DNA from: Candidatus Latescibacterota bacterium
Lineage (GTDB): Bacteria > Latescibacterota > UBA2968 > UBA8231
Direction: 5' to 3'
NCBI GenBank assembly: GCA_965204725.1
Contig: OZ242005.1
Location: 2,304,001 to 2,368,000 of the forward strand
Length of the DNA stretch: 64,000 bases
Shown here: piece after piece, positions 26,696 through 63,577 of the stretch
How the letters are laid out: each line of letters opens with the position of its first letter
Numbering within the stretch: position 1 is the stretch's first letter
Position numbers and translations under genes: made by a program
Notes under the pieces: model-generated
Databases searched by the model: none
The model's input: the letters and a program-made list of their open reading frames with translations, nothing else
What the model was told of the DNA's origin: nothing

Positions 26696-28773
26696 TTAAC
26701 CTCGAGTGCTATCGACGATTTCTTCGGTGATGTGCCTTGGGACGGCTTTGTATTTGGAGAACTGCATGGTAAAAAGTGCCCGTCCTTGGGTCAATGAACG
26801 CAGACGAGTGGCATAGCCAAAAGTCTCGCTCAGCGGCACGAAGGCTTTGACGACTTGGGCATCGGAACGGGGGTTGATGCCTTGGATCTCGCCACGGTGC
26901 GAATTGAGATCGCCCATTACGTCGCCTAGATATTGCTCGGGGACGACGACCTCCAACTCCATAATCGGCTCCATGAGATAGGGCGCCGCTTTTAGGGCAC
27001 CGCCTTTGAATGCCATAGAACCGGCAACCTTAAACGCGACTTCCGATGAGTCGACTTCGTGATGCGACCCATCTACCAGCGCGACTTTAACATCTTCGAT
27101 CGGATAACCGGCAACCGGGCCGCTGGTCATCGCTTCAATGATGCCCTCGCGCACTGGATTGATGTATTCCTTGGGGATGTTGCCGCCGATAATTTTCGAC
27201 TCAAAGACCAGCCCACTGCCAGGCTCGCCGGGCTCGATCTCCAACTCAACGTGCCCGTACTGGCCGCGGCCTCCGGTCTGTCGCACGAACCGACCCGAGC
27301 TCTCAACAGCCTTGCCCAGGCCTTCTTTGTAGGCCACTTGGGGCTTGCCGACATTGGCCTCAACCTTGAACTCGCGGAACAGCCGGTCAATGAGTATCTC
27401 TAGGTGTAGTTCACCCATGCCCGACATGATCGTCTGGCCTGTTTCGTCGTCGAGCTTGACCTGAAAGGTCGGATCTTCCTCACTGAGCTTGGACAGGGCA
27501 ATGTATAGCTGCTCTTGATCCGCCCGCGTCTTTGGCTCAATTGCCACATGGATCACCGGCTCGGCAAATTCGATCTTTTCCAAGACGATGGGGTGCTCAT
27601 CATCGCAAAGCGTATCGCCAGTAGTTGTGTTTTTGAGGCCAACCACAGCGACTATATCGCCAGCATAGGCACGAGATAGCTCGGTGCGATCGTTGGCGTG
27701 CATCTCCAGCAAGCGCGCAGTTCGCTCGCGGCGCTCCGTAGTCACATTGTAGAGATAAGTCCCCGAGCTTAGCACACCTGAATAGACGCGAACAAAAGTG
27801 AGACGCCCGACAAAAGGATCCGTCATAACCTTAAAGGCCAACCCGGAAAAAGGCGCGTCGTCGCGGGCGGGCGCACCGCTTCTGCGCTGGAATGGGGCAG
27901 CATGCCCTTGACTTGGCCGATGTCGGCTGGGGACGGAAGATAGTGCAGCACGGCGTCGAGCAAGCGCTGGACGCCTTTGTATTTGTACGCACTGCCACAC
28001 GTTACCGGCACGGCCTTCAGCGCGATGGTGGCTTGGCGCAACGCAGCTCGGATCTCGTCGGGATGAATTTCCTCCCCTTCTAGAAATTTTTCGAGCAGCC
28101 CATCGTCAAATTCGGCCACCGACTCGAGCAGCTTTTCGCGGTGTTGCAAGGCACTCTCCAGCAAGTCTGCGGGGATATCGTCCTCAAAAAACTTGACGCC
28201 CTGACTGGCCTCTTCGTAGGTAATGGCCTTCATCTCGACCAAGTCTATCAAGCCGTTGAAGGTCTCTCCAACGCCGATGGGCAACTGGACGGGCACAAAA
28301 TTGCTGTTCAATCGCTCTTGGAGCATGCTAAGGACCTGAAAAAAATCAGCCCCATTGCGATCCATCTTATTGACAAAAGCAATGCGCGGAACTTCGTATT
28401 TGTCGGCTTGGCGCCAGACGGTTTCGGACTGAGGTTCAACTCCGCCGACCGCACAGAAGACGCCTATGGCCCCGTCAAGGACGCGCAGCGAACGCTCAAC
28501 CTCGGCCGTAAAATCTACGTGCCCGGGCGTGTCGATGATATTGATGCGGTGATCTTTCCACTCGCAAGCGGTAGCTGCAGAGGTAATAGTAATTCCTCGC
28601 TCGCGCTCTTGCTCCATCCAATCCATCGTCGCCGTGCCCTCGTGGACCTCTCCCATGCGATGAACGCGACCCGTGTAGTAGAGGATTCGCTCGGTCGTAG
28701 TGGTCTTGCCGGCGTCAATGTGAGCCGCAATCCCGATGTTGCGCGTGTCTTGTTGGGCAAACTGTCGTACCAT
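26696..28773 (-). CDS. fusA: Elongation factor G, split by a 1-nt frameshift near 27863-27874
   Basis: N-part has [10 protein letters not shown] and DTPGHVDF; C-part has [27 protein letters not shown]. The span is 2078 nt, one base short of a 692-aa ORF. Confidence 0.9.
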
Positions 28774-41930: not shown

Positions 41931-41964
41931 AAAACAAAAGCGGAAGCGCACGACCGCTTCCGCT
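41931..41964 (-). terminator. Intrinsic terminator inside the greA leader
   Basis: AGCGGAAGCG-N6-CGCTTCCGCT stem followed by TTTGTTTT on the minus strand. Confidence 0.65.
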
Positions 41965-42006: not shown

Positions 42007-42105
42007 GCTAAGGGACTTGCCCAAGTTCGTCACCCTCCTTTTAATAAATTTACGGATTTACAGACCGAGCCACCCCTTCCCAACCACAACGCACTCGCGC
42101 GTCTC

Positions 42106-43374
42106 ATGGCCTTGACACTCCTGCACTTTGCCGATCTGCATCTGGGCGTCGAAAACCACGGCGGCCTCGACCCAAGCACCGGCCTGCATTCGCGGGTTCA
42201 AGATTTTGCTGCCAGCCTAGAAGCCGTCTTCGACCTAGCCATTGAAAAGGCGGTTGATTTAGTCCTCTTCGCCGGCGACATGTACAAGAATTGCGATCCG
42301 ACCCCGACCCACCAGCGCGTCTTCGCCCGCCAGCTCCAGCGCCTGCAAGCGGCCCGCATCCCCATCGTGCTGGTGGTGGGCAACCACGACGCGCCGGGGG
42401 CTTTTGGCAAAGCCACTTCGGTTGACATTTTCAGCACCCTACAGCTAGAGAACACTCACGTCATCCGCCGCCCACAACTCCTGCGGATTGAGACGGCTCA
42501 CGGTCCCGTGCAAGTGGCCGGCCTGCCTTGGCCGACGCGCCATGCCCTACTCACCCGCGCTGAATACCGCGACCTGTCTATAGAGCAAATCCGCGCCGAG
42601 ATCCAAAAAATTTGCGCGGCCCAGATCGACGAGTATGCTCGGCAGCTCGACCCAAAGCTGCCGGGCATACTCGTCGCCCACCTCGCCGCGGCCGACGCCG
42701 TCTATTCTGGCGGCGAACGCACCGCTATCATCGGCCAAGACCCCGTTCTGCTCGCCAGCACTCTGGCCAATCCCGCCTACGACTACGTCGCCTTGGGGCA
42801 CATTCACAAATACCAAGACCTCAACTCCGGCCAACATCCACCCGTGATCTATTCGGGCAGCCTAGAGCGCATCGACTTCGGCGAGGAAGGCGAAGACAAG
42901 GGCTTCTGCCTCGTACGCATCGCCGAGGACGCGACCGCGCCGAGGGGTCGCACGACCACCTTTGAGTTCGTCCCCGTCCCGGCTCGGCGCTTTGCGACCA
43001 TCGAGCTAAAGGTGCTCGCTGGGCAAGACGCCACCGAGCGCATCGTCGCGGCCTGCGCCGGGGCCGATATAGCAGGCGCCGTAGTCCGCGTCCTCTACCA
43101 CCTGCCCGCTGGCTACGCCACACCAGTGGACTTACAACAGGTGCGGGAAGCACTCAAACCGGCCTTCCACGTCGCCTCCATCCAGCCGCGCTTTGCCCCG
43201 GAAAAGCTCCAACGCCGAGCTGAAATCAGCGAGGAGGCCGAGCTAGGCGACGCCCTCGACCGCTACATCGACAACAGCCCAGACCTGCAAGAACACCGGG
43301 CCGAGCTCAAAAACTACGCGCTCCGTCTAGAGCGCACGCTCGAATCGGGCCAACGCAACGGAGACGACGCATGA
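42106..43374 (+). CDS. sbcD: SbcD/Mre11 nuclease subunit
   Basis: HFADLHLG, AGDMY, VGNHD, LVAH, YVALGHIH, YSGS. Confidence 0.92.
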   Translation: MALTLLHFADLHLGVENHGGLDPSTGLHSRVQDFAASLEAVFDLAIEKAVDLVLFAGDMYKNCDPTPTHQRVFARQLQRLQAARIPIVLVVGNHDAPGAFGKATSVDIFSTLQLENTHVIRRPQLLRIETAHGPVQVAGLPWPTRHALLTRAEYRDLSIEQIRAEIQKICAAQIDEYARQLDPKLPGILVAHLAAADAVYSGGERTAIIGQDPVLLASTLANPAYDYVALGHIHKYQDLNSGQHPPVIYSGSLERIDFGEEGEDKGFCLVRIAEDATAPRGRTTTFEFVPVPARRFATIELKVLAGQDATERIVAACAGADIAGAVVRVLYHLPAGYATPVDLQQVREALKPAFHVASIQPRFAPEKLQRRAEISEEAELGDALDRYIDNSPDLQEHRAELKNYALRLERTLESGQRNGDDA

Positions 43375-46300
43375 TCCCCCTGTCCCTTTCGCTGCACAAC
43401 TTTCTCAGCTACGGCGAGGAGGTGCCGCCCCTCGACTTCACCCAGTTCCACGTCGCTTGCCTCACAGGCGGCAACGGCCACGGCAAGTCCGCCCTGCTCG
43501 ACGGGATTACCTACGCCTTATGGGGCCAAGCGCGCAAAAGCCGCAGCGACGAAGAAATGTGTCGGATCGGTGCCAAAGAGATGCGGGTTGACTTCGACTT
43601 CGCCCTCGGGGAAAAGCACTTCCGCGTCATCCGCAGTTGGCGTCGCACCAAGCGGGGCGTCCCGGCCCTAGACCTGCAAGTAGAAAGCGACGGCGTCTTC
43701 CGCACCCTCAGCGAAGGCGAGGGCATCAATCCCACCCAGCAGCGCATCAACGAGCTCCTATCTATGGACTACGACACCTTCGTCAACTCGGCCTTCATCG
43801 TCCAAGGACGCGCCGACGAGTTCACCCAGAAAAACGCACGGCAACGCAAGGAAGTCCTCGGGCGCATTCTCGGCCTAGAGCGCTACGACCAACTCCAAGG
43901 CATGGCTCGGGTCCGCTATCAAGAGCACCAGCGCCAGAGCGATACTCTGCGAACACGTCTCGGCGAGCTCGATGAAGAGTTGGCCCAGCGCGAAGGCTAC
44001 GAAGCCGATCTACGCGCCCTCGACGACCACCTCGCTTTACTCGGCCGCGAAATCAGCAGCCGCGAAAAAGCGCAAGCCGAGTTGGAGGCCCAACGCCTAG
44101 AACAAATGCAAATCCGCCAGCGCGTCGCCGAGCGGCAGCGGGAGCAGCAGCGCGTTGCCGAGCGGCAGCAGCAGGTCGCCACCGAACTCGAAAACCTGCG
44201 GGAGCAGCAGCGCCAAGACAGCAAAATCCTAGCGGCCGCCGAATCCATTGAGCGGGATTTTGCGGCCTATAACGAGCTCCGCGACCAAATCCACCTGCTC
44301 GAACAAAAGGCTCAGCAGCACGGCGAATTAGAGGCCCGCCGCAGCCAGCTAGAAGCGCGAATCGCCCAAGTGCGCCAAGAGGTGGAGCGCCAGCAAGAGC
44401 GCTGGGCGGCCACGCTCGACGAGCGCCAGCGTCAGCTCGACGAGCATCGAGCGTTGCTCAATCGAGAACAGACCATCGCCATCCGCTACGCCCAATTCAA
44501 CAGCCTCAGCGAGCAGGCCCAAGCCCTAGAGCAGGCCCGGATTCGCTACGAGGATCTCCTCCACCAGCGTCGCGGCCTCAAACACGAACTATCGCTTGCA
44601 GAAGAGCAGCGCAAAAGCCAACGCCAAGCACTAGCCAACCAATTGGCGCAAATCGACCGAGCCATGGCCGAAGGGGAAACCCTAACGGCCCACATCCGCC
44701 AGTTGCAAGCGCAACGGACCCAATTGCAGGCTAAAGCCGAGGAACGGGACCGCCTCGCGGACGAAGGCCGCGACCTCAAGGCCCAGATCAGTGAGCGGCA
44801 GCAGAAGCGACAGGCCGAAGAGGAAGAGTTGACCAACGAGCGCCAGCAGGCTCAGGTCTTGGCCCGTTCCGACGACGCCAACTGCCCATTGTGCGGCAGC
44901 GCGCTCGACGCCGAACACCGCCAGCGGGTCGCGGCCGAACTCGCGCAGCGGGAAGACCGCTGCCAAGAGCGCATCGCCGCCCTCGGCCGCGAGTTGGCCA
45001 CGCTCGGCGAGCAATTGCAAACGATGCGCACTCAGTACAAGGCACTCGACGAGGAAATCGCGCCCCTCCAGCAGGTTCACCAAAAACTGGCCGCCGAGGA
45101 GGCTCGGCTCGGGCAGTTGCGGGAATCGGCCTCAGCGGCCTCGTCGCTAGCCGAGCAACTAGCCGCCCTCGACCGCGAACTCAAAGACCAACTATACGCT
45201 CCCGGCACACGCGAACGCCTGCACAAGACAGCCGGGGAAATCGAGCTATTGGGGTACAGCAGTGCCGAACACGACGCCCTGCGCCAAAAGCTCGCCGAGT
45301 TGCGCCCGGTCGAGGCCGAGCACACCCGCTTGCAAGACGCCAAAAGTCAAGCCGACCGGCTCGAAAGCGAGCGGGCCGAAGTCCAAAGCCAACTTGAGCG
45401 GGCCAACCACCAGCTCGCCGCAGCCGACTATGCCCACGAGGAACGGGAGCAACTCGGCCAAGTTGAGCAGCAGCTCACAGACCTCGGCTACGACGGGGCC
45501 GAGCACCAGCGGGCGCGCCGGCAACAGGACGAGCTGCGCGACAGCCCGCTCCGATTTGAACGCCTGCAACACGCCCGCCAACGCCGCGCTTCGGCCGGTG
45601 AATCGCGGGCGCGCTACGAGGCCGAAGCCGCTGCGCTAGCCGAGCAATTGCAGACCATACAAGAAGAACGGGAACGGTTGCGCGAGCGGGCCGGCGCGTT
45701 GGAAGACGTCGACCGGCAGTTGGGTGAAAACCAAGTCCAACTAAAAAAGCTGCGGGCTGAACGGGATCCACTCCTCCAACGCCGGGGCAGCCTAGAGGCC
45801 CAATGCAGGCGTTGCGCCGAACTGGCGCAGGAACGGGATGCGTTACACCAAGACCTGCAAGACTCCCAGCGACAGGCCTGGATCTACCAACAGCTCGACA
45901 AGGCATTCGGCAAGGATGGGATCCAAGCGCTGATCATTGAAAACGCCGTGCCCCAGATCGCCGAAGAAGCCAACGCCATTCTCGCCCGCCTAACCGACAA
46001 CCGCATCCAAGTCGCCTTTGAGTCGTTGCGCGACCTCAAAAAGGGTGGCACCCGCGAAACCCTCGACGTCAAGATCGCCGACGAGGTGGGCGAGCGGTCC
46101 TATCACCTCTATTCCGGGGGGGAGGCCTTCCGCACCAATTTCGCCTTGCGTATCGCGCTCTCCAAGGTGCTGGCCATGCGCTCGGGCACCCGCCTTCACA
46201 CCCTCTTTATCGACGAGGGCTTCGGCACTCAAGACGAGCAGGGGCTGGAACAACTCATCGAAGCCATCCAAAAGGTCAGCGAGGATTTCAAAAAGGTGTT

Positions 46301-46406
46301 GATCGTCACCCATCTCGACCAACTCAAGGCGGCCTTTCCAGTGCAAATCGAGGTCGCCAAACACCCCGACGTCGGCTCGCGTTTCGCTATAACGCAACAC
46401 GCTTAG
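43371..46406 (+). CDS. sbcC: SbcC/Rad50 SMC-type ATPase
   Basis: Walker A GGNGHGKS, coiled coil, CPLC zinc hook, YSGGE signature, LFIDEGFG; ATGA overlap with sbcD. Confidence 0.93.
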   Translation: MIPLSLSLHNFLSYGEEVPPLDFTQFHVACLTGGNGHGKSALLDGITYALWGQARKSRSDEEMCRIGAKEMRVDFDFALGEKHFRVIRSWRRTKRGVPALDLQVESDGVFRTLSEGEGINPTQQRINELLSMDYDTFVNSAFIVQGRADEFTQKNARQRKEVLGRILGLERYDQLQGMARVRYQEHQRQSDTLRTRLGELDEELAQREGYEADLRALDDHLALLGREISSREKAQAELEAQRLEQMQIRQRVAERQREQQRVAERQQQVATELENLREQQRQDSKILAAAESIERDFAAYNELRDQIHLLEQKAQQHGELEARRSQLEARIAQVRQEVERQQERWAATLDERQRQLDEHRALLNREQTIAIRYAQFNSLSEQAQALEQARIRYEDLLHQRRGLKHELSLAEEQRKSQRQALANQLAQIDRAMAEGETLTAHIRQLQAQRTQLQAKAEERDRLADEGRDLKAQISERQQKRQAEEEELTNERQQAQVLARSDDANCPLCGSALDAEHRQRVAAELAQREDRCQERIAALGRELATLGEQLQTMRTQYKALDEEIAPLQQVHQKLAAEEARLGQLRESASAASSLAEQLAALDRELKDQLYAPGTRERLHKTAGEIELLGYSSAEHDALRQKLAELRPVEAEHTRLQDAKSQADRLESERAEVQSQLERANHQLAAADYAHEEREQLGQVEQQLTDLGYDGAEHQRARRQQDELRDSPLRFERLQHARQRRASAGESRARYEAEAAALAEQLQTIQEERERLRERAGALEDVDRQLGENQVQLKKLRAERDPLLQRRGSLEAQCRRCAELAQERDALHQDLQDSQRQAWIYQQLDKAFGKDGIQALIIENAVPQIAEEANAILARLTDNRIQVAFESLRDLKKGGTRETLDVKIADEVGERSYHLYSGGEAFRTNFALRIALSKVLAMRSGTRLHTLFIDEGFGTQDEQGLEQLIEAIQKVSEDFKKVLIVTHLDQLKAAFPVQIEVAKHPDVGSRFAITQHA

Positions 46407-46419
46407 CCCCTTGCCCGCT

Positions 46420-47382
46420 ATGGCCCATCACGACGAATACCAAGCCGCCCGCGCCGGCGTCGCCCTGCACGAGCAAGCCTCGTTTCGCTTGGACATGCGC
46501 GGCGCCGACCATCTCGATTTCCTCCACCGCATGACCTCCAACGACTTCCACAACCTGCAAATTGGGCACGGCCTCGAAGCGGTCTTTATCGAACACCGGG
46601 CGCGGATTCTCGACTTGGCCACCTGCTATCGCGGCCCGGACGCCACGGCCTTGATCCTGAGTCCCGATTCGCGCGCCGCAATCCCCGCTTGGTTGGATCG
46701 CTTTATCTTTGCCGAGGCTCTCGAATGGGCAGACCGCACCGACGAGACGGCCCTGTTTGAACTCGTCGGCCCACACGCCGCTCCGCTCGTCGCCCGCACC
46801 TTGGCTGCGGATCTAACTGAATTGCAGGATCACCAGTTACTCGACCCACAGGTCGCCGACGGCCTGTGGCTGGCGCGCACGGCCGGGCCGGGGTTGCGCG
46901 CCTTTGGGCCGCCCGCTGCCATAGAGGCCCTTTGGCAACGACTCGCCGCTGCCGGGGCGCGGCCAATAGGGGCGGCGACCGGGGAAATTTTGCGCGTCGA
47001 ACAGGGCCGGCCCCGGCTCGGGCGCGAGCTGACCCAAAGCTACAATCCTTGGGAAGCCGGGCTTGATCGCGCTATTCATCTAGATAAGGGCTGCTATATC
47101 GGCCAAGAAGTCATCGCCCGCCTAGATACCTACGACAAAGTCAAGCAGCACTTAGTGGGGCTGCGGCTTTCCACCGCCGAGTTGCCGGCAACCGAGCAAC
47201 CGCTACGCGATGGGGGACGCGAAGTCGGGCGCATCACTTCTGCGGTTCATTCCCCCCGCTTCGGCCCGATTGCCCTCGCCTATGTGCGGCGGCGTGCTTG
47301 CGCCGAGGGCACGGTGCTCGACGCGGGTGGAGCGCGAGCCACTGTAGTCGCCCTGCCTTTTTCAGCGCATGAGTCCTGCTAA
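46420..47382 (+). CDS. YgfZ/GcvT-family folate-binding protein
   Basis: KGCYIGQEVIAR signature. Confidence 0.88.
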   Translation: MAHHDEYQAARAGVALHEQASFRLDMRGADHLDFLHRMTSNDFHNLQIGHGLEAVFIEHRARILDLATCYRGPDATALILSPDSRAAIPAWLDRFIFAEALEWADRTDETALFELVGPHAAPLVARTLAADLTELQDHQLLDPQVADGLWLARTAGPGLRAFGPPAAIEALWQRLAAAGARPIGAATGEILRVEQGRPRLGRELTQSYNPWEAGLDRAIHLDKGCYIGQEVIARLDTYDKVKQHLVGLRLSTAELPATEQPLRDGGREVGRITSAVHSPRFGPIALAYVRRRACAEGTVLDAGGARATVVALPFSAHESC

Positions 47383-48280
47383 GGCCGGCCGACGCCGCAA
47401 GATAGTCCATATTGGGATTGATAGCGGCCCGCGCCACAACACCCGAACCTGCTCCGAATTCGCCGCGCTCCTGCGCGAATACACCGATTGGATCGAGTGG
47501 GGCGACGGCCATGCCATTCTCGACGTCACCGACAACAAGCTCGACATCCCCTTTGGAATGCGCGTCGCCAAGATGATCAAGAGCGATGTCAAGCGGCAGC
47601 TAGGCTGGGGCATTTCCGTGGGGTTGGCCCCCAGCAAGTTCTTGGCGCGGCTGGCCATGGAACGCCAGCGGCCCGATGGCCTAACAGTCGTGCTGCCCGA
47701 ACAGATCGGAGATTTTCTCGCCGACGTGCCCATTGACCAACTCCCCGGCGTGGGAGCTATCACGCGCCAGCAGCTCGCGGCCATGCAAATAGAGCGCGTG
47801 GGTTCGCTGGCTCGCGCCCCCCTGAACGAACTCGTGCGTCGCTTTGGCCAGCGGGGCCGCAGCTTTTGGCATCTCGCCCAAGGCCAAGACGACGACCCGG
47901 TCGCCGCGGCCGAGCCGCTCGGGCAAATCGGCGAGGAAGCCTCGTTTGCCGCCCCGCTATACACCCGCGAAGAAATGCGCGATGCCTTGCACACGCTAGC
48001 CGCCGCGCTCTGTGGACGCTTGCAGCGCCGGGGACTCCAAGCACACGACGTGAACCTAGCGGTGCGCTACCCAGATTTTCGCACCGCCACGCACACCGCA
48101 CGGTTGGCCTCCTTTACCGACCGCGCCCCGGTCGTCTTGGCCGCGGCCGAGGCGCTGTTAGACCGCACCGAGGCCGACGACTTGGGGGTGCGCTTGTTGG
48201 GCCTTGCATTGGGGGGATTTGCCGACGAAGCACTCGAACAGCTCGATCTGTTCGCTGGCGAAAGGTCGGTTGAGAATTAG
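47369..48280 (+). CDS. DinB-like Y-family polymerase homolog, finger domain deleted and catalytic residues lost
   Basis: RKIVHI, LDVT, SVGLAPSKFLARLA, KP-equivalent RPDG, HhH LPGVG, VRYPDF, VRLLG, QLDLF. Confidence 0.8.
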   Translation: MSPAKAGRRRKIVHIGIDSGPRHNTRTCSEFAALLREYTDWIEWGDGHAILDVTDNKLDIPFGMRVAKMIKSDVKRQLGWGISVGLAPSKFLARLAMERQRPDGLTVVLPEQIGDFLADVPIDQLPGVGAITRQQLAAMQIERVGSLARAPLNELVRRFGQRGRSFWHLAQGQDDDPVAAAEPLGQIGEEASFAAPLYTREEMRDALHTLAAALCGRLQRRGLQAHDVNLAVRYPDFRTATHTARLASFTDRAPVVLAAAEALLDRTEADDLGVRLLGLALGGFADEALEQLDLFAGERSVEN

Positions 48281-48332: not shown

Positions 48333-48419
48333 GAAGTAGGGGTCATTCCCGCGAAAGCGGGAATCCAGAAAAGGACCAAGCCGAATCAGAAACGGAAACC
48401 CTAATTTTCAGACCGCTTC
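48333..48419. repeat. MITE-like remnant: REP/dRS3-like palindrome (48342-48368) plus an IS5-type terminal repeat (48405-48419), TAA on both sides
   Basis: GTCATTCCCGCGAAAGCGGGAATCCAG; TTTTCAGACCGCTTC is the exact reverse complement of 63581-63595. Confidence 0.65.
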
Positions 48420-51000: not shown

Positions 51001-52506
51001 TCACCTAAGAAGCATGAAACTCGAAAGCGGCAAGCTGACGATTCGGGGGTCGTCAACCTTCCCGGAATGATCCTGCGTGATCAGCAAGCCAAAAGAGGCG
51101 TTGTTGACTGATTTTTCCACAAACGACCGAATACCGAGTGTATCCCGCAAGGGATCAATCCGGCGTTGATATTTGATTTCCACCGGCACGCGCTGTGCGC
51201 CGACCGTCAAGACGAAATCCACTTCGCGGTCCAAGCCGCGCTCGGGCAAGTGGGCGATGTCCAAGCCGTGAACGGTCAAGGCGACCGAGCCGAAAATGCT
51301 CTCCGCGAGATGGCCGGCCAGCGCGGTGAGTTCGGGCCGCTCGGCTAGGGCTTCAGCGGTCAATGGAATCTGCTCTTGGAGCCAACTGGCTCGCAGGCCG
51401 TGATCGACCAGACACAGTTTCGCGTTCCCGCGCTTTCTCTTGAGCCGAATCTCGAGCGGTGGAATCAAGCGAAGCAGCAGGGTGTCGGCGAGAAACCTCA
51501 AGTAGTGAGTCACCCGCTGACTGCCGATGTTCGCGCCGAGCGATTGACGAGCTTCGTCCGCCAGCGTCGAAACCGTCGGCGTCTGCCCGGCATAGCGGCA
51601 GGCCAAGCGGAAAAGCTCTTCAAGTAGCTGGGCATCTCGCTTCCGGCCGCGGTCGCCGACCCGAAGGTCGTGTTGGATAACCCGCTTGATCACGGTTTCG
51701 TTCAACTGGTCCGCGAGCAAGGGCCAGCCGACATCCTTTTGCTTGTGGACTATCGGATAGCCTCCCCGCTCGGAAAAATGCCGAAAGGCTTCATTCCGAA
51801 ACGCGGTGTGCTTCTCCCCATGGGCGCGCAACTCCTGCCAGAAACCCTTGTCAATCAGGAAGCTCAGGCCGTTGTCTGGCAGGAATGGTTGCGGCGGCCC
51901 CAGTGCGCGCAACGCGCCGATTTCGGTCAGCGAAAGCACCCCTGCCTCGACCGTGCTGATGCGCCCGGCCAAGCTGTCCCGCCCCCGTTCAATCCGCAGC
52001 GCGGAACTTCCCGTAACCATGACCTTTACCGCGGTGTTATCTACGAGAAACTTGAGCTGCGGTGCCCAAGCCTGAAGGTTCTGCACCTCGTCAAAAAAGA
52101 GGTATGCCTTCTGCCCGTCTTGCGCGAGCGCGTTGAAGTGCTTCTTGATTATCTGCCGCTCGAACCAATCGGCCACATCGAGAATCGGCTGTTGAGTGGT
52201 TTTCAGCGCGGGCAGTTCGTCAAACGGGACCCGGAGGATGCTCGTGGGCGACACGCCTTCTGCAATCAAATCTGCAATGACGTGAAGCTGCGCCGTGCTT
52301 TTTCCCACTTGCCGCGGACCGCGCACCGCGACAATCGGGGCGATCTCCGCGTCGAGGCGACAGCGAATCTGCGCGACGAGGTGGCGGCGCGTACGCGGCT
52401 GCGGAGGCATGGGGTTGTCTTCCCACCAAGGATTCAGACGACGCAGGACGCGGACGAACTCCGGCGACAACTCATAGTCGATAAAAGGCAAAGCCCGCTT
52501 GCTCAT
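51001..52506 (-). CDS. AAA_14 ATPase with DUF4143 / PD-(D/E)xK-like C-terminus
   Basis: GPRQVGKST, LFFDEVQ, TGSSAL, SLAGR, GGYP, EVDFVL...PVEIK. Confidence 0.85.
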   Translation of the reverse strand: MSKRALPFIDYELSPEFVRVLRRLNPWWEDNPMPPQPRTRRHLVAQIRCRLDAEIAPIVAVRGPRQVGKSTAQLHVIADLIAEGVSPTSILRVPFDELPALKTTQQPILDVADWFERQIIKKHFNALAQDGQKAYLFFDEVQNLQAWAPQLKFLVDNTAVKVMVTGSSALRIERGRDSLAGRISTVEAGVLSLTEIGALRALGPPQPFLPDNGLSFLIDKGFWQELRAHGEKHTAFRNEAFRHFSERGGYPIVHKQKDVGWPLLADQLNETVIKRVIQHDLRVGDRGRKRDAQLLEELFRLACRYAGQTPTVSTLADEARQSLGANIGSQRVTHYLRFLADTLLLRLIPPLEIRLKRKRGNAKLCLVDHGLRASWLQEQIPLTAEALAERPELTALAGHLAESIFGSVALTVHGLDIAHLPERGLDREVDFVLTVGAQRVPVEIKYQRRIDPLRDTLGIRSFVEKSVNNASFGLLITQDHSGKVDDPRIVSLPLSSFMLLR

Positions 52507-52557
52507 TCTCTTCCTTTCACGATGGGAGCTTGCTCGGGGAATGCGCTACATCTCCCC

Positions 52558-52600
52558 GTCAGGATCGCGGATTGGTGCGGATTAAAGGATGGCGCGGATT
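52558..52600 (+). repeat. 43-nt CGGATT-triplet repeat, left copy of an inverted pair
   Basis: GTCAGGATCGCGGATTGGTGCGGATTAAAGGATGGCGCGGATT. Confidence 0.7.
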
Positions 52601-53012
52601 AAAGACCGTTGGGTCGTCTGCGCTTGGGTTGTGAATGAACTAGTCTTTTGAACACTAAACTTTTCGACCCGAAATTGATTAACAAGCCCACTTCTAGCCG
52701 ATATGCCTTCAAATAATTTAAGGTCTGCGCTATGTGGGCATCTTCCAATACAGAAACCGCTTTCAATTCTACCAATACTTTTCCTTCAACGACAAAATCG
52801 GCGCGGCGCGTACCAATTGGCTTTGTCAATCCTTTGTAGAAAATGTGTTGCTCAATTTCACGCGCAAAAGCCAACCCCACCTGTGCCAGCTCAAACGCCA
52901 AGGCCCGCTGATAAATTACCTCTTGGAATCCATTGCCCAAAAATTTATGCACCTCGAAGGCCGCCCCGATGATTTTTTCGGTTATATCTCTGTGTTTTAG
53001 GTTATTGATCAT
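52599..53012 (-). CDS. GxxExxY protein (PD-(D/E)xK nuclease superfamily)
   Basis: GFQEVIY, RADFVVE, VELKA, QTLNYLK, GLLINFG. Confidence 0.92.
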   Translation of the reverse strand: MINNLKHRDITEKIIGAAFEVHKFLGNGFQEVIYQRALAFELAQVGLAFAREIEQHIFYKGLTKPIGTRRADFVVEGKVLVELKAVSVLEDAHIAQTLNYLKAYRLEVGLLINFGSKSLVFKRLVHSQPKRRRPNGL

Positions 53013-53080
53013 ACTTACTTTTCTTTCTCTACTGCGTCCTTCGACCCGTTTCAATGCCGGCGTGACCATGAGTGAATAGG

Positions 53081-53449: not shown

Positions 53450-54293
53450 GAAGCTATCTCATAAATACCGTAGCAGTATGAGGATGCATCCGAGTTGTAC
53501 AAAGCCGAGGTAGTTTTCAGCATAGTATTCGTATCGAACCACGATGCGGCGGAAGTTATGCAACCAAGCAAACAGTCTTTCTATTTTCCAGCGTCTTTTG
53601 TAGCCCCGCAACCGCCGCCCGTCCTGGGTTTTGGCCTGCGTGCGATTGCGGCGATGCGGGGCGATCATCTCAATGCCTTGGTTGGCCAAGCTCGCATCCA
53701 ATCGATCCGAGTCGTAGGCTCGGTCCCCGATGAGTCGTTGCGGTCGGGGCTGGACCCATCGGTTTTCCAAGGTGGCTTCTACGAGGGTGACTTCGTGGGG
53801 CGAAGCACTTTGGATGAGTACGGCGATAGGAAGACCAGCGCGGTCTGCCACTGCCATGAGCTTCGTACCTTTGCCCCGCTTGGTCGGACCCACTCGGTCC
53901 CCCCTTTTTTCGCCGCGACAAACAGGCCATCGATGAAGCATTCGCTCACATCAAGGCCCCCGCGCTCATGCAAGTCGTGCGCGAGGGTGCGCAGAATATG
54001 TTCAAAGGTGCCATCAGACGACCACTGTTGGAATCGACGATGGCAGGTCTGGTAGGACGGATAGCGAGCAGGCAGGTCATGCCCAGGCGCCCCGGTGCGG
54101 AGAATCCACAGAATACCATTGAGCACCGCCCGGTTACAACGCCAGGGACGACCCCGACCATCGCGGCGTTTGGGACACGCCGGCAGCAGTGGGGACACTA
54201 TCGACCACTGTTCGTCTGTAAGATCCATAAGAGATACCTCCGAAAGGGAATACCACTAACGTAGCACAGCCAGACTATTTATGAGATAGCTTC
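53450..54293 (-). mobile_element. IS5-family (IS427-group-like) insertion sequence, 844 bp, TA at both ends; two-ORF transposase (53779-54228 and 53459-53941)
   Basis: Perfect IR (TA)GAAGCTATCTCATAAATA; MDLTDEQW...WILRTGAP; A6G6 slippery site (AKKGG); [18 protein letters not shown]. Confidence 0.92.
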
Positions 54294-57200
54294 TAGATGG
54301 GATGCTGATAATGTAAGGATCTGTGAGGCGTTTATTTTCGAGCTCTTCTTTTACAAGATCATAATCTTGCTTGCTAATAAAAACAGCGTTAATCCTAAAC
54401 CAACAATCTAATTTTGTTTCTCGACCTGATTTGCTCTGTTGTTCCATCCCTCTTAATACTATCCATTGATTCTGCTTACCAGGATCTTTTACTCGCAAAA
54501 GGTCTGAAAAATCGGGGATTATATCTTTATCCCAAAGAAACTCTTGCTGATCACGAATATCGTCACGGCCGGAAAAAGAGAATTTGTATGGCTGCCACCA
54601 TGTACTCTCTGAGTGATGGTCACCATTTTTTCTTATCCAAATAGTAGGATCAATATCTCGTTTGTACATTTGCCATGGGCCATAGTAATGTTTGTCTTCC
54701 ATGTCACTATAACCGCGATCTATCCAATGTACGTTATCGGATAAACGCGCAAGTATCTCATGAAACGCAATCCATTGATATTTCTTGCCGATCCTTTCCA
54801 TCTCTCCGCCGCTAGGCCCCTGATCTCGTCCATAGGAGCAATGTTCTTCAAACTTAGAAAAAAGTTCTTCTGTCCAACCAAACTCGTAGGAACGCTTACA
54901 CACCCACCTTTGTGCCCACTTACGACTAAACGCAGCCGGCCTATCATTATCCAAACCAGAAAGCCACCTATAGTATTCTCTATTTTCATCACTGCTAATT
55001 TGGGTTTTTATTTGGTCTTCCAACTCTTCCGGTCTCTTTTTTCTCTGGTCTCGTCTTTTTTCTTTTGATTTCCGTACATTTTTGTGTTTCTCAATGGCGT
55101 CGTTTTCTTTTTTAATTTCGTCAAAAGTTCGCATATTTTTTCTCACATCTACCTGTTTTAAGCGCATAGAAGATATATCAATCTTCTTAGAAGTGTTTTT
55201 AGATAGATTTGGGGCAATTTGTTTTAGATATTCTGCTTGAACCTTTCCGCGTAATAATTGTTCTGCAAATTTCTTTTTCAAATCATATCCCGTTTGGGGA
55301 GCAGGTTCGGATATAGGTGTTGGAGACCAGTTGTGAATGCAATTCATAGTGTACGTTCCAAAATCTCCTGGAAACCCCATAACAGAACTTTTTATTTTTG
55401 AGTATCCTTTGCTCTGTTGAAAAGGCTTATTTATTAGCTTGGTTCGCTCCATTATTCTATATAATATCGCAGGAGCAAGCTGTACAAGAAACTTAATCAT
55501 AGCCTCCTTAACTCTGCTTTTCAATAGAGCAATCTTTGAGTATCCTTTATTCTCAACTATGCTGTCAATTTCCTTTTGTGTAGGATTTTCTATTGGCCAT
55601 TCAGATTTGTACGGCGGTCGAAACAAGTCGATATTGACACCATCAGGAAGCAATTTTTTATATAGAGCCAACTCCAAAATACCTCTCGCATAATCTCTGA
55701 GAAGTATATGCGGTATAGGCTTGCCGTCTTTGAAGACGAGTTCAAAAACCAAAGTTGCTATACGAGAAATAATCTGTGGATCAGTAGTATTACAAACAAC
55801 TCCATAGGCAACAGCATATAGACGTTCAATCAAATAGAGATCGTTGACCAAATGAAATTCACGAAGCAAATCTGGCAAAAAAGAGGGATATTTTGACAGT
55901 ATTCTTACCAGCGATTTTGTCGCTCTATCACGTACCTTGCGATTCGATGTTGTAAGAAACCATAGCAATGTGATCGCACAAAGTTGTATCCTTTCTTTCT
56001 CAACTTCTTCTATATCTCCAAAGCATGACCATTCGATAAGATCTCTTACAATGGATTCAATCCCTTCATCTTCTTCTGATGTATAATTCAATGCCACATG
56101 AATCGACCAGAAATGGTCACGCTCAGCCATCTCTTTGCCTATTAAGTTGGTATGTATTAGCCTTGCGTTCCATGGGTGTGAGGGTTCTGTTGATAGCTTC
56201 AATAGTATATGCAATATTCGGTTAGAATATTTTATCCGATTAAGCAATTCCAGCGTTCTGTCCGAAAATGAACTTGGAGTTCTCCAAATAACTGTGTTGG
56301 AAAACATTTCAGTGGTTAGCCGTTCATCAATATCTGCATCACAAGGTAAAAGATCAATCAACTCTTTATTATATTTTTCTGCAATGATTATGGTCAAAGC
56401 CTCAAGTATTCCGGCATATCTATAATATCCGCGTTCTGCAACTGCCTTACCGAGAGGCTTATCAGGGGAAAAAATACTGTCAATATTTTCTGAGTTATAC
56501 TGCTCTATAATTTGTTGAGCAACAAAATGATCGCTGAATCTCTCATAGGTGAACCTGACTAAAGGTTTTCCTCCCTCATCAGGTTCATACGAAATATCAT
56601 CTGACAAGACACCTTCCTGCAATAATTCATTAAGAAAAGGCTTGCCTATATTTTCATTCGGATCGTGATCACGGAATAGTTTTCTAGCGTCTCCCGTGGG
56701 TATTCCAGTTAAATGTTCTGGAAATAATTTCGATGAGAATGCGATCAGAGCTTGTTTGACTATTTCTTCTCTGGGATTATAGTCTTTACGTTTAGCAATT
56801 ATTTTTTCAATGCTTTTAATATAGAAATCAAACAGACTCGTAACACCGCGTAAGCCTTTAGGGAAAGCGGTCATATTATTTGCTTTTAGAGCTTGGCAAC
56901 ATGTTTTTAAGAACAAAGGGTTAGTAAACTCTGGTGCCAATATAGGAGCACTGGGTTTTGAAATTCCTTGCTGAGATAGATACTTTTCTGCGGCACGATG
57001 CTCGTATCCTTGAAAGCCATAGTGCTTTATCTGAATAAGACGATCTTCATTTATGTGGTCAGGCAAGATATATGTTAAGAAAGTACTCCGACAGCTTAAC
57101 AAAACTGCGATATGATCAAATTTAGATATGTCTGATAAGAAGCTAATTATATGATACTGCCAGTCCTCTCTATGTAAACCTTCGTTGATAGCATCGATTA

Positions 57201-58482
57201 CGATAAGTGCCCTAGAACCGGAAGCCTCTCCTGCAGCGTTTATTGCCCCAAAAACCTGTGAATCACTATGTTCCCTCAAATCAATGGCATCTTTTATCAA
57301 TTCAATCGGATTGCCGCCGCCATATTGAGAGCCCAAAAGAAAAATTGTAGGTTGATTATTTTTTATTCGATGAAGGCTAATATCGCAGAGCAAATGAGAC
57401 TTCCCGATTCCAGCCTCGCCATATAAAAGGGCTGTCTTAATTTTTGCCGCTTTAACCTTTTCTCCTTTTAAGAAATAAGAAAAATCACTTATTATATAAA
57501 AGAAGTCATCAAAAATCCTACGTTCCTCATTGCGGTCAGGTCTCCCTTGACTGTTCCTGTTTTCCTTCGAGAGCATATCGTAATATTCTGAATATTCTGA
57601 TATTTTTTCAAAATGCTCTTGCACATCTTGAACATTGAATAGCACATCTTTTTGGTTCATCCCATCCGATAAGATGCGAGATACCACTAAATACAGTTCG
57701 TTTATCTTTGCGACTTTTTCTGAATCCAACAACTCTGATTTGTCTCCCATAAACTCCTTGAAAAACTTTTCTGCCTTTTCATTTAAGTCCGCTATTCTAG
57801 ACCCTAAGTCTTTCCACCATTGAGCATTCAGGCAAAGCCCATCAAAAACTTTAGCAATAGGTAAATCAACATGAAACTCGGGTGTATATCTATCTCCCAA
57901 AGCCTCCCGTGCTTTACCCGCTATGTCCTCGAGTTTTCCAAAATTCAATACTGGTTCGTTAAACCAATACAATGCTTTACCAGAGTACAAAGGATCGTTA
58001 ATAGTCAAAAATGATGTGATTTCATGCTTCCCCCAGTACTTAAACTCGACACTGCGTCCCTCATCTTGAGCCCTCTCTTTCCATTTTTTAACATAGATAT
58101 TCCATTCATCTTCAACAGATACTACTTTCTTGCCACCTCGTCCTTTTTTTCTGCTATCCGATTTGTCCAGAGGCAAACAGATGACATATTTCGTCAAATT
58201 AGGATGTCTCTCCAAGGCGGTAATAAAAGAATGATCCAATTGTTGCCAACGAGATTGATCCATTCCATCTGGAAAGTACTTCGCTTGCCAGCATATTTCT
58301 GAATTATCTTCTAGGACCCAATAGCACTCGACACCAGCATCACCACCAGCACCTTCCTTCCTCGTAAACCTCAATGCTTTTTGTGGTTTGCGGAGACGCG
58401 CAAGTTGACAAACCAGTTCTTCAAAGCCAGATGCTTGGCTTCCGTTATGTGCTCTAATAGTTGAAAAATCAATATTGTTCAT
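54256..58482 (-). pseudogene. AVAST/Avs2-like STAND NTPase with N-terminal nuclease, truncated by the IS
   Basis: N-terminal FEEL...GGDAGVE...WQAK (Mrr/PD-DExK-like); Walker A GEAGIGKS; IDAINE; NPLFLK; ERIGKKYQWIA. Subtype assigned from recalled motifs only. Confidence 0.7.
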
Positions 58483-58562
58483 CTGGTTAATCCTCCTTTT
58501 TTATCCTCTGCATCACTTGCGGCGTCTGTGTTTTCTGCACCCTCCACCCACCTGCACTGCCC

Positions 58563-58605
58563 AATCCGCGTCCTCTGCGTAATCCGTCTAATCCGCGATC
58601 CAGAC
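58563..58605 (-). repeat. 43-nt CGGATT-triplet repeat, right copy of the inverted pair
   Basis: Reverse complement GTCTGGATCGCGGATTAGACGGATTACGCAGAGGACGCGGATT. Confidence 0.7.
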
Positions 58606-58621
58606 ATCTTCCACCACCGTC

Positions 58622-58732
58622 TCATCCAACACTCCGCGCCCGCTGTTTCCGATTTTCGACCAACTCGGTTACGTCGGCATATACCAACTCGCGGTCGTCA
58701 GCGGTCAAGCCCAGTGCACCAACTTCATTCAT
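58622..58732 (-). pseudogene. 36-codon remnant ORF resembling the C-terminal helix of another RM methyltransferase
   Basis: MNEVGALGLTADDRELVYADVTELVENRKQRARSVG; overlaps the RM stop codon. Confidence 0.45.
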
Positions 58733-61700
58733 TATCAGCGTCCCGCATTTCTTCCAGCAACGCTTGCCCGATATATTCGTCGTGTCTTTCGCTGATGTTT
58801 GTAGCGTCAGAAGTCAATGTGCCTGCTAATGCTAGTAGGGGATCGCGTTCGGGCTGACGTTGGGCTTTCAGTTCCTCTTTACCCTCAATGGCGCGGATGA
58901 CCTCCAAGCTACCGAGAAAGAAAAGATTCTTCCGTACAGGATGTTTTCTCTCATAGAGTCGCTCAAAGATGGTGCGGAGTGCGGACATTTTATCGCCGGT
59001 GATTTCCTCGATAGAGTGCAACTGCTCGCCTTGCAACGGTTTGAAGAAGTACTTGTCAGCGCGATGCAGTTCATCGGTCAGGTAGATTTCATAAACCAGT
59101 CCGTCAACTATCCGCTCAAAAAACTTGACCATCAGGTAGTCCCGGGCATAAGCTAAATTTTTGCCGTCCGTAGATGGCTGATTCTTGAGGTAGATGATGT
59201 AATCGACGATAGTGGTGATGAGGGCGTTCTTATCGGCAGTAATCTTGGGAATGGGGATGCGTTCAACAGCGAATTTCTTCCACTGAGTAAGGCCCATTCC
59301 AGTCGTTAGGGCGGTATTCTTTATGAGCCAAGTAACAAGGGTACTGTTCAAAACCGCACAAAGGTATTTCAGCGATTTCCCCGTCATAAAAAACCCTTTG
59401 TCGTTGCAATACATTTCCGAATCAGAGTAGGCGAACCTTCCCTTGCTCGACATATCCATCCAGAACAGCTTTTCTTTAGCAAACTCTGCATGGTAGGCGC
59501 AGTTGCGAAGACTGTAAGGCGTCTGAACTCTGTCATACCGCTTTTCCAAGTTTGGATAGAACTTATCCAAGTGATTTTTGATGATCGGGTAATCGTCAAT
59601 GTTGATAGCCGGAACATCGTCATATCCGTTGTGCGTATCAATCAGCCAGACCCCTGCCCATTGCACTTGATAGCGTTGAATATCCCGGCCGCGCAACATG
59701 GGCTTGATAACCTCGGCAGACTTCGGGTCTGCGGCGACCAATTCCTTTTTGGTTGCATCGTCAATAATGAAGGCGTCGTTGAATCCAGTTGTTACGCCGC
59801 GATAGATAGACACATCCCAGTCTTTCAACGGCGTTCCAATCGCCTCCATCTTATCCATAATCGACTGCTCAATGGCCGACAGCGCACTCCACGGCTTTTC
59901 CCCTCTTGGACTCAACTGCCCCCAAAAATTGTCCTCCGGCGGGAAGGCTCTATCGGACAGGCGGTCCATATCCACCGCCTTGCAGACCGCATCGCTCTTG
60001 CCGCTACGCGCTAGCAAAATGTTGGTGTCAACAATAGCGTTTTCAAAAACATCCTTGCCCATTTCCAACAACTGCAACGGCGAGTGTTGCTCAGCAAAGT
60101 AGCGGCGTGTCGTCTTGCCGTATTCCGCCTTTAACCAACTGTTGGACGTGATATAAGCGAGTAGGCCGTGCTGGGACGCGAGCAGTTGGCAGCCCTTCTC
60201 GTAAAAAAGCTGATAGATGTCGCCCGTGCGGACGAAGGTGGCAAACCCGGCGTCCTTGTAGAGCCGCCCCAATTCCCCTCTATTTTTCTGCAACTGAATG
60301 TACGGCGGATTCCCAATCACCACGTCAAACCCATCGGCGACGCCGAACATATACTCCGCGTCGAACCAATCGGCACCAGCATTCTGGTCGTAGGGATCCC
60401 ATTGGGCGACTTGGTTCGCGGCGGCAGCACTCATACTGTTCTGCAACTCGGCGGCCAATTCTCTACGCAGCCGGGCATCCTGTCGGCGATACGCCAACTT
60501 CTCTTGGCGCGTGGTGGCGTGAAAGTGCCGCTCGCGGTTTTCGTTCAGTTCCTGTTCCAACCGATTCACCGCATCCGTTTGCCCGAGGCTCATTTGGGCT
60601 GGCTTGTCAAGGCTCAACAACGTATTCGCCGCGACAAAGCGCGTCTCCAAGTTCGGCAACGGCTTAATGCCAAAGTTGTCGGCGGTCTTGTTCACTTCCT
60701 GCTCTATCGCCAGCGAAATGAAAAAGCGCAACTTGGCGATCTGGCAGGCCACCGGCTGAATATCCACCCCAAAGATGCTGTTCTGAATCAGATACAGCTT
60801 GCGCCCAAAGTCGGAGTCCCGGTAGTGCTCAAAGGTCTCGCTGATTTCATCGAGTTCGGCTTTGCGTTCCCGTGGGTCTTGGGCGTCAAACGCCACATCC
60901 GCCTTAGCTAGGGCGCGTTCCTTTTGCAACTTCTCCCAGTGGGCGTTGTCGGGGTCAATCCGCCGCAAGGCCAAAGTGAGTTTATGCAATACACCCATGG
61001 GAAACGCGCCCGATCCGACCGCTGGGTCCAACACCTTGAGCTCCGCAATCGCCTGCACAAGACGTTCCGCTTCGACCTCCTCAAACAGTTCATTGGCGTC
61101 GTTGAACGCATCCTCATAGTCCAGCAAATAGCGCAACCGATCTTGCCAAAACCCAACATCGTCGTCTCTTGGCGAACACGCCTGAGCCAATGCCTCGACC
61201 AACGCCTCATCCACCATGTAATCCACCACCGGACGCGGCGTGTAGTACGAGCCAGTCTGCTCACGCACCGTCTCGCGTGTTTCGGGATTGTACGCGGCCA
61301 GCAAATTCTCGAACACCTTGCCGAGCAACTCCGGGTCAAGCGCGACCTCCTGTTCCGCAGGCGTGTTTTCCTCCACCGTGAACTTGTAGCGGTTGAACAG
61401 AGTAATCAGCCCATCGTCGTCAAAAAACAGGCGGTTGGGAAGGCTCAACTTGTGGTAGTGAACATCGGAAAAACAGTCAACGCGCCAGCCGCCTGATGTG
61501 GTAGATTCCTCACTGTCCAGACAATCGAACAAGCCGCCGTTGATAAAGGGCGTCTGGCTGAACAGACGCAACAGCGCATCCGGGTCGCTCATTTCTCTTT
61601 TGAAGCGATAGCGGGAAAAGTCGCGGTGAGTGACATTCTTCTTTTGGCTAAAACCGCGCTTTTCGATCTCGGTGTTGAGCGTAGCGAAAAACAGGTTTTG

Positions 61701-62648: not shown

Positions 62649-63577
62649 GAGGCTGTCTGAAAACTCCATTTTCTATTTGATTCTTTTGAGTAACAGGTGG
62701 ATCATAGCAATCTGGATCAAGGCTTCGCTATGGCGGGTCAACACCTCATAATCTCGGGCATGACGGCGCGAGTTCATCACCCATGCCAAGGTACGCTCGA
62801 CGACCCAACGGCGTTTGAGTACGGTAAATCCGGGGCCTTGTTTGGCGACGACTTCCAAGTCAATCTTGTGCGTCTTTTTTAGGTTGGCCACCCATGTTCG
62901 GATCGCCTCGCCTCGATAGCCGCCATCGCCCCACAGTTTGCGTAACCGGGCTACGCCGGACGTCCCCAAGCGGGTCAACACCTGCTGCAAGCCGTCTCGA
63001 TCGGATACATCGGCGGCGGTGACCACCACCTGTCGAAGCAAGCCTGAGGCGTCGACCAGCAGATGCCGTTTTCGGCCTTGAACCTTCTTGCCCGCGTCGT
63101 AACCGGTTGTTTTACCATGGGTTGCCGTTTTGATGGTCTGACTATCGATACAGCCCGCCGAGGGCGTGGCCGGCCGGCCGTTGCGGCGGCGTTCCTGCTG
63201 GGTGAGCCGTTCCAACACCCGCGGCCAGACCCCGTGCCGGCTCCAGCGACGGAAGTAATCATACACCGTTTTCCACGGGCCAAAACAAGCCGGTAACAAC
63301 GCCCAAGGACACCCCGTCTTGTTCAGATACAAAAGCCCGTTGACGATCGGACGCCGATCCCGCGGCGGCCGACCCGGACCGTTGGGGCGCCACCGCGGAG
63401 CCGGCAGCAACGGTTCGATCTGCTGCCATTGCACATCGGTTACATCGGTTGCATATTGGCCACTGGGCGTACTCATCATACGAGCCTTTCTGTTCAGATT
63501 TTGTGGTGAAACCTGAATATGGCCTGATGAGTACGCCGATTCAAATACGACTACATAATGGGTTTTCAGACAGCCTC
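62649..63577 (-). mobile_element. IS5-family (IS1031-group-like) insertion sequence, 929 bp; transposase 62673-63479
   Basis: IR GAGGCTGTCTGAAAAC / GTTTTCAGACAGCCTC; YATDVTDVQW, IDSQTIK, GRKRHLLVD, GDGGY, RWVVERT. Confidence 0.93.

Follow-up and report, generated by a model that had tools for sequence, protein, structure and literature searches.

At positions 42106 to 48280 of a 64,000-nucleotide (nt) stretch of Candidatus Latescibacterota DNA (contig OZ242005.1; hereafter the window, in which all coordinates are given), four genes on the + strand form a compact operon. They encode, in order, the two subunits of SbcCD, a YgfZ-type protein and a 303-amino-acid (aa) derivative of DinB (DNA polymerase IV, Pol IV) which has lost its finger domain and its catalytic residues. 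The first gene, sbcD (42106..43374, ATG at 42106), encodes a Mre11-type nuclease subunit of 422 aa which matches Metallophos and exceeds the TIGR00619 cutoff (165 bits against 77.65), and its start, MALTLLHFADLHLG, is common to 27/27 aligned loci. It overlaps by 4 nt with sbcC (43371..46406), whose 1011-aa product is a Rad50-type ATPase with matches to AAA_23, SbcC_Walker_B and Rad50_zn_hook that are all over the Pfam cutoffs; the match to TIGR00618 has an expect value (E) of 5.6e-94, yet at 316 bits it lies below the cutoff of 478.5. A phosphoesterase SbcD followed by an SMC-like SbcC with a zinc hook is the arrangement that defines SbcCD. After a gap of 13 nt, or of 4 nt if the alternative TTG start at 46411 is used in place of the ATG at 46420, follows the ygfZ-type gene (46420..47382). 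Its product matches GCV_T and GCV_T_C, the GcvT fold, as well as the TIGR03317 YgfZ domain (86.7 against a cutoff of 49), placing it by sequence in the folate-binding YgfZ/CAF17 family (COG0354), with folate binding itself predicted. The protein has a mean column identity of 76%, with KGCYIGQEVIARL and KGCYIGQE (which we take to be the YgfZ family signature) invariant in 33/33 aligned sequences. The last gene, the dinB derivative (47369..48280), overlaps ygfZ by 14 nt. The four tightly coupled genes, with two overlaps and a 13-nt gap, that an earlier note on this DNA had reported are thus as it described them.

The first departure of the last gene product from an active polymerase lies close to its N-terminus. 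Pol IV holds its metal ions with three carboxylates (in E. coli, D8, D103 and E104). What is left of palm strand beta-1 (residues 10–19, RKIVHIGIDS; 47396..47425) contains KIVHIGID, which aligns to KIIHVDMD of intact Pol IV and puts Gly16 at the position of the first catalytic Asp. A second MAFFT run deletes this Asp rather than replacing it with Gly, such that the residue is absent in both alignments, and Gly16 is invariant in 16/16 aligned finger-less sequences. Between beta-1 and the next palm helix approximately 56–65 residues are missing, which corresponds to the finger domain with boundaries as in Dpo4, and a variable linker (residues 20–27; 47426..47449) occupies the former finger site. 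The alignment obtained with HMMER pairs residues 35–281 with chain residues 91–337 of E. coli Pol IV (4ir1), an offset of 56. In the same alignment the former metal-binding hairpin (residues 42–52, IEWGDGHAILD; 47492..47524) reads IE-WGDGHAILD where E. coli Pol IV has IEPLSLDEAYLD, the Asp-Glu pair having become Gly47-His48, so that all three catalytic carboxylates are gone (Gly16 or a deletion, Gly47, and His48). The Pfam IMS palm/finger model is matched solely over positions 76–148 of 148, and all nine Pol IV models of NCBIfam match from about position 89, each below its cutoff (the best being NF002677, 174.3 against 256 bits). The protein therefore lacks three attributes of an active Pol IV, namely the finger domain, the catalytic carboxylates and a score above the model cutoff, and is correspondingly short at 303 aa against 360–370 aa in the nearest intact relatives.

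The remainder of the polymerase is present. The thumb (47699..47908) matches IMS_HHH_1 at residues 124–174 and includes the helix-hairpin-helix (HhH) motif LPGVG at residues 125–129, while the little finger (47924..48220) belongs to the IMS_C match at residues 186–294 (E 2.6e-23). The HhH residues G127 and G129, together with little-finger R275, are invariant in 117/117 sequences, intact DinBs among them. At the C-terminus, which reads EQLDLFAGERSVEN and contains EQLDLF, the motif QLDLF (residues 291–295; 48239..48253) is followed by 8 further residues. It fits QxxLF, given as the beta-clamp-binding consensus in PMC12926913; a clamp motif of the QxxLF type is present, and binding to the clamp is predicted from it. 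An AlphaFold2 model built from a 117-sequence alignment has a mean predicted local distance difference test score (pLDDT) of 86.9 with the palm beta-alpha pattern intact: a strand at residues 12–19 leads through a short, poorly defined linker (mean pLDDT of 62 for residues 21–30) into a normal palm, thumb and little finger. The best matches of this model in the PDB, found with Foldseek, are Pol IV, Dpo4, Rev1, iota and kappa (E 1e-26 to 1e-17), with Pol IV and Dpo4 at the top (E 1e-26 to 1e-22). As modelled, the Y-family palm/thumb/little-finger fold is retained. The earlier note had read the same anatomy from the letters (a change of the N-terminal motif to IVHIGID, about 60 finger residues removed in frame, all three carboxylates lost, and palm, thumb HhH, little finger and QLDLF kept), and its description is upheld by the alignments, the Pfam matches and the model.

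The finger-less form is not confined to this genome. When 5.8 billion protein clusters were searched, 128 of the 8000 candidates scored matched at E <= 0.001, and among the 120 matches listed approximately 75 clusters of 193–353 aa (50–92% identity) are followed by intact DinBs of 360–370 aa (46–50%). The same finger deletion is seen in 12/12 short homologues aligned residue by residue, the remaining short homologues being judged from lengths and a summary alignment alone. Genomic context was taken from a scan of one genome per species, which provided 80 loci. Thirty of these (L001–L030), from records titled Candidatus Latescibacterota and in some cases Gemmatimonadetes/-ota, have the finger-less form, and in all 30, as in the window, the gene is open and encodes 294–314 aa. 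It lies directly downstream of ygfZ in 30/30 loci; sbcC is present in 30/30 (a contig end cuts it in three), and sbcD in 27/30, the contigs of the remaining three stopping before they would reach it. The linkage to sbcCD to which the earlier note had drawn attention, here together with ygfZ, is found wherever the contig extends far enough, and the flanking greA gene is common even to distant loci. In one locus (L023, 4001–6268) the sbcC frame stops early, after about 756 of about 1011 codons, possibly through a frameshift or an error of assembly. In the source records the finger-less proteins are annotated as 'DNA polymerase-4' or 'hypothetical protein'.

A profile search of 1.84 billion representatives clustered at 50% returned one finger-less representative (P0125), from which we conclude that the family is narrow. 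Candidates for finger-less DinBs outside it did not survive inspection. Of 11 sequences fetched from among the matches listed, seven of 287–308 aa are truncated gene calls, since each starts inside the finger region, either at an internal Met or in mid-sequence, and still has the Asp-Glu pair (DEAYLD-type); the other four are either less truncated (P0164, 316 aa; P0139, 334 aa) or full length (P0129 and P0212).

The finger-less DinB derivative is conserved under purifying selection. The ratio of nonsynonymous to synonymous divergence (dN/dS), calculated according to Nei and Gojobori and pooled over 26 closely related genomes, is 0.220 for the dead dinB (bootstrap 0.177–0.268), which resembles the values of its neighbours, 0.182 for ygfZ, 0.147 for sbcD and 0.203 for sbcC. 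Within the gene, the clamp motif (residues 290–295) shows 0 nonsynonymous differences in the 26 genomes at a proportion of synonymous differences (pS) of 0.54. The palm remainder has a dN/dS of 0.11, the former active-site hairpin (residues 42–56) 0.15, and the thumb and little finger 0.23 each, with values of 0.65 in the linker that replaces the fingers and about 1 in the first nine residues, which overlap ygfZ.

The family has a single origin: in a tree of 61 sequences (quick IQ-TREE run, LG+G4), the 32 finger-less rows form one clade with a support of 100 in the Shimodaira–Hasegawa-like approximate likelihood ratio test (SH-aLRT). This clade is nested within another (SH-aLRT 97) whose other 8 members are all full length and all without at least one catalytic residue. 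A table of 31 sequences comprises 15 full-length proteins without at least one carboxylate, 13 intact proteins, one that is cut at the N-terminus and two finger-less forms, and QL[D/C]LF is kept in 15/15 of the dead full-length relatives. The window protein therefore belongs, as one branch, to a larger collection of DinB relatives that are dead, and is not an isolated oddity. Which carboxylates are lost varies by branch (P0128 keeps the first Asp, for example, and P0129 keeps the Asp-Glu pair), and on this basis catalysis appears to have become dispensable near the base of the group, with no single shared mutation as the knockout.

The operon itself is older than the inactivation. In one locus (L031) an intact DinB of 369 aa begins 6 nt after ygfZ, and in a second (L033, Latescibacterota) the gene after sbcD, sbcC and ygfZ overlaps ygfZ by 4 nt and encodes a DinB whose catalytic half is complete. 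In a third (L049), greA, sbcD, sbcC and ygfZ precede a dead DinB that still has its fingers. Since both the intact protein and the form that is dead with fingers occupy this position, sbcDC, ygfZ and dinB were linked before catalysis was lost, and one operon slot shows three successive states: intact, dead with fingers, and dead and finger-less. None of sbcD, sbcC or ygfZ was found near dinB in the other 46 loci (L034–L048 and L050–L080). The intact-type dinB of L033 (8657–10987) is interrupted in its little finger by two genes for transposases (DUF4096/DDE_Tnp_1 and DDE_5).

Upstream of the operon, a candidate promoter (42018..42046, + strand; TTGCCC, 17 nt, TTTAAT, the hexamers being read by eye) lies inside a block, GGGACTTGCCCAAGTTCG...TTTTAAT, that is conserved among 27 aligned sbcD upstream regions; a consensus promoter scan did not list this site. 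The same alignment contains further conserved blocks and a hairpin. A GTAC-N8-GTTC sequence in the window is unconserved. The hairpin (41939-41964), between greA and sbcD, has the form GCGGAAGCG-loop-GCTTCCGC with a run of T after it on the minus strand. Across 26/27 aligned loci, distant ones included, the stem is conserved and the loop differs, and the hairpin may be a leader or attenuator element of greA.

The earlier note had also called the window rich in palindromic repeats, and this impression did not hold up against simulation: there are 3 perfect hairpins with a stem of at least 10 base pairs, compared with a mean of 1.0 (range 0–3) in 20 simulated windows, and a single three-copy element. 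A permissive scan of the window finds 22 inverted pairs. The three-copy element resembles repetitive extragenic palindromes (REP-like), and its copy just after the operon, ATTCCCGC-GAAA-GCGGGAAT (48343..48365, + strand), is a possible terminator. The pattern TCATTCCCGCG-NNN-GCGGGAATC occurs at 48343-48365, 63619-63641 and 63675-63697, giving 4 matches (one site being matched on both strands) where 0.02 are expected. The second and third copies flank the end of an IS5 transposase gene, and no copy is present in the 80 related loci. Inside sbcD itself, at 42627-42676, lies a near-perfect inverted repeat with 21-nt arms that are 95% complementary and an 8-nt loop.

The operon is flanked by greA upstream and by a hydrolase gene and a LarA-like gene downstream, all on the opposite strand, with a large cluster of ribosomal-protein and RNA polymerase genes farther upstream; the locus is core chromosome and not a mobile element. 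We also considered the operon as a defence system and set this aside: SbcD, YgfZ and DinB have no PADLOC match, and SbcC has only weak generic LmuB/SMC matches. Elsewhere in the window, 54256-62633 on the − strand, within an AT-rich segment at 52–60 kb (GC content 0.38–0.51 against about 0.6 elsewhere), resembles a defence island. It contains a 1408-aa open reading frame (ORF) which matches Avs2 (STAND NTPase) models with 1487 bits and has no Pfam match, followed by a 1302-aa type IIG restriction-methylase, with the IS5-type transposase adjoining at 62673-63479. At 51001-53069, also on the − strand, lies an AAA_14/DUF4143 ATPase with a match to PDC-S01, a candidate system of PADLOC (E 3e-34), next to a small PD-(D/E)XK nuclease. 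The gene for elongation factor G, fusA (26696-28773, − strand), is divided between two reading frames, 27823-28773 and 26696-28000, that overlap. The gene is essential, and the frameshift that this suggests is most likely an assembly indel; single-base errors may therefore exist elsewhere in the window.

Inactive Y-family proteins as such are already known, and have been described as organising, clamp-binding subunits (PMC6511836, PMC12926913). A close analogue is ImuB, likewise a Y-family fold without catalytic carboxylates that keeps a clamp motif and is thought to have an organising, non-catalytic part, according to the same two papers. The two proteins nevertheless differ in architecture, neighbourhood and ancestry. 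ImuB has a finger region, a C-terminal domain and a RecA-NT-type motif and sits with imuA and dnaE2, whereas the window protein is finger-less, ends 8 residues past QLDLF, has sbcDC and ygfZ as its neighbours and derives from the DinB 'NKxDIPFG' clade. No ImuB-named family is among its NCBIfam matches, the RecA-NT-type motif not having been searched with a dedicated model. A Pfam scan of the 57 other ORFs of the window revealed no imuA, dnaE2 or second Y-family gene, as the earlier note had stated for the first two. The iPolY proteins of Timinskas and Venclovas (e.g. Streptomyces DinB2 with DnaE2B) are inactivated as well, nearer to ordinary DinB than ImuB is, and equipped with a clamp motif, but they are described as full length and as associated with DnaE2, ImuB-C or RecA. 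The same authors characterise PolY proteins without catalytic residues as 'dispersed or form diffuse groups' (PMC12926913). The main texts of PMC6511836 and PMC12926913, supplements aside, mention neither SbcC nor Latescibacter.

Active DinB/Pol IV is clearly the ancestral form of the window protein (47–50% identity to intact relatives) and shares its thumb, little finger and clamp motif, but differs in possessing fingers and a catalytic triad; the window protein also scores below all Pol IV equivalog cutoffs. A more distant parallel is provided by noncanonical prokaryotic family X polymerases without polymerase activity, in which a repair polymerase lineage has likewise been kept for another role. 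These belong to a different polymerase family and are reported to keep an exonuclease activity (PMC9226535), of which there is none evident in the window protein. Literature searches for SbcCD-DinB operons, for a connection between YgfZ and Pol IV, and for finger-less dead Y-family proteins returned no earlier description, in agreement with the earlier note, which had called the protein undescribed; it is the finger-less form in an SbcCD operon that we did not find described.

On balance we favour a non-catalytic, clamp-tethered DNA binder which serves SbcCD-linked repair as a pseudo-polymerase placeholder or brake, with DNA binding, clamp binding and the role itself all inferred. On this reading the last gene of the operon encodes a pseudo-polymerase descended from DinB. 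With its finger domain and metal-binding carboxylates lost, neither binding of deoxynucleoside triphosphates (dNTPs) nor synthesis is expected of it. Selection has kept the palm scaffold, the HhH thumb and little finger, which would grip duplex DNA, and the C-terminal QLDLF as a predicted clamp hook. Co-produced with SbcD, SbcC and the YgfZ-type protein from one conserved operon, the dead DinB would dock on clamps that remain at primer ends, on forks that are broken or stalled by hairpins, or on recombination intermediates, and would grip the duplex beside the 3' end. There it could act as a non-extending placeholder or brake, denying polymerases access to the end during processing of the DNA by SbcCD and recombination proteins. 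E. coli Pol IV is reported to act at RecB-dependent double-strand-break repair intermediates (PMC7470938), which provides a rationale for an ancestral dinB sharing an operon with SbcCD.

Several observations weigh against this proposal. An ancestor with an active DinB already had the operon link, so the link may say little about the present role. The alignment of the 27 sbcD upstream regions contains no recognisable LexA-type palindrome (LexA box). The deep finger-less branches (L026–L030) keep an Asp at the second catalytic position, with Asp-Asp in L030, which means that only the subclade to which the window belongs has lost all of the triad. Finally, the N-terminal nine residues and the scar linker evolve nearly freely.

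The earlier note had gone further and proposed an adaptor that recruits the SbcCD hairpin nuclease to forks, which is a stronger version of the placeholder idea: the dead DinB would hold the clamp and DNA on one side and SbcC or SbcD on the other. Parts of that interpretation have stood, the protein being conserved and dead with its clamp motif strictly kept, and the strict conservation and tight spacing of the operon, the invariant clamp motif, the use of a dead Y-family protein (ImuB) as a clamp-binding scaffold (PMC6511836) and a 2025 preprint reporting direct binding of RecBCD to the clamp (10.1101/2025.08.20.671105) are all compatible with it. What has not stood is the argument from gene order. 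The sbcDC-dinB link exists already with intact DinB (L031 and L033) and with the form that is dead with fingers (L049) and implies no new interface, and, since it is older than the inactivation, the operon alone is no argument for a newly evolved SbcCD adaptor. Moreover, the tightest and most constant junction is that of ygfZ with dinB rather than of sbcC with dinB, the sbcC-ygfZ spacers reach about 70–340 nt in distant loci, and there is no extra domain or tail to receive a partner, only the 8 residues after QLDLF. We consider a physical SbcCD adaptor possible but unlikely. Similarly doubtful, in our estimation, is a broader version of the same idea, in which a translesion polymerase of the SbcCD operon became in steps a clamp-docking adaptor that loads or holds either SbcCD or the YgfZ-type protein at clamp-marked ends.

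The constancy of the ygfZ-dinB junction leads to another proposal, that the dead DinB is a DNA- and clamp-targeting subunit for the YgfZ-type protein, which would perform a folate-dependent activity on DNA, for instance on one-carbon (formaldehyde-type) adducts or crosslinks, with SbcCD clearing protein-blocked ends. N2-guanine adducts are the speciality of DinB-type polymerases, and proteins of the GcvT fold work with tetrahydrofolate. The two genes overlap or abut in the window, in 30/30 finger-less loci and in L031, L033 and L049, and the YgfZ-type protein is very strongly conserved, with its 76% mean column identity and invariant KGCYIGQE block. The partnership is nevertheless drawn from gene order alone, YgfZ is usually linked to the upkeep of iron-sulfur clusters, and the literature search found no link between YgfZ and Pol IV, its single hit being unrelated. 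Longer proteins included no fusion of YgfZ with DinB, an absence of little weight. We regard this targeting role as improbable. When the YgfZ-type protein and the dead DinB were co-folded from self-built alignments, the score was 0.00 (mark 0.32), which speaks neither for nor against binding.

Residual catalysis, either as a minimal polymerase or nucleotidyl transferase that relies on different acidic residues or as some other enzyme function of the remodelled palm, is very improbable. It would account for the acidic residues D18, E37, D40, E43 and D52 on or near the palm, which are invariant in 16/16 sequences, for the strong constraint on the former active-site hairpin (dN/dS 0.15) and for the one catalytic Asp retained by deep finger-less branches, but the entire dNTP-binding finger domain, which covers the nascent base pair in an active polymerase, is missing, the first Asp is Gly in 16/16 aligned members and, unlike a conserved active site, the Asp-Glu positions vary by subclade (G-H/Y, D-A, D-Q, and D-D). 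That the gene is a decaying pseudogene, as the earlier note had allowed, or an open annotation or assembly artefact is hardly credible and was rejected: parts essential to the ancestral activity are indeed lost and the assembly has at least one apparent frameshift (fusA), but the gene is open in 31/31 cases across species up to 50% different in protein sequence (30/30 loci plus the window), the bootstrap range of its dN/dS of 0.22 reaches no higher than 0.27, its clamp motif shows no amino-acid change at pS 0.54, and the family has persisted long after a single origin.

Eukaryotic Rev1 also has a largely non-catalytic role, and the reduction seen here goes beyond that of ImuB and Rev1 in that a whole domain has been lost. 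Because the transition from intact, through dead with fingers, to finger-less can be traced in one orthologous slot, the locus offers a clean natural experiment on the non-polymerising roles of Y-family proteins. It also carries a warning for annotation, given that finger-less proteins are filed as 'DNA polymerase-4' or 'hypothetical protein'. The finding points to a functional tie of DinB, the sliding clamp and SbcCD-type processing of breaks and hairpins, one that is open to experiment because the protein is small and easily expressed, and, if the adaptor proposal were true, it would constitute an undescribed connection between a bacterial Mre11-Rad50 complex and the sliding clamp.

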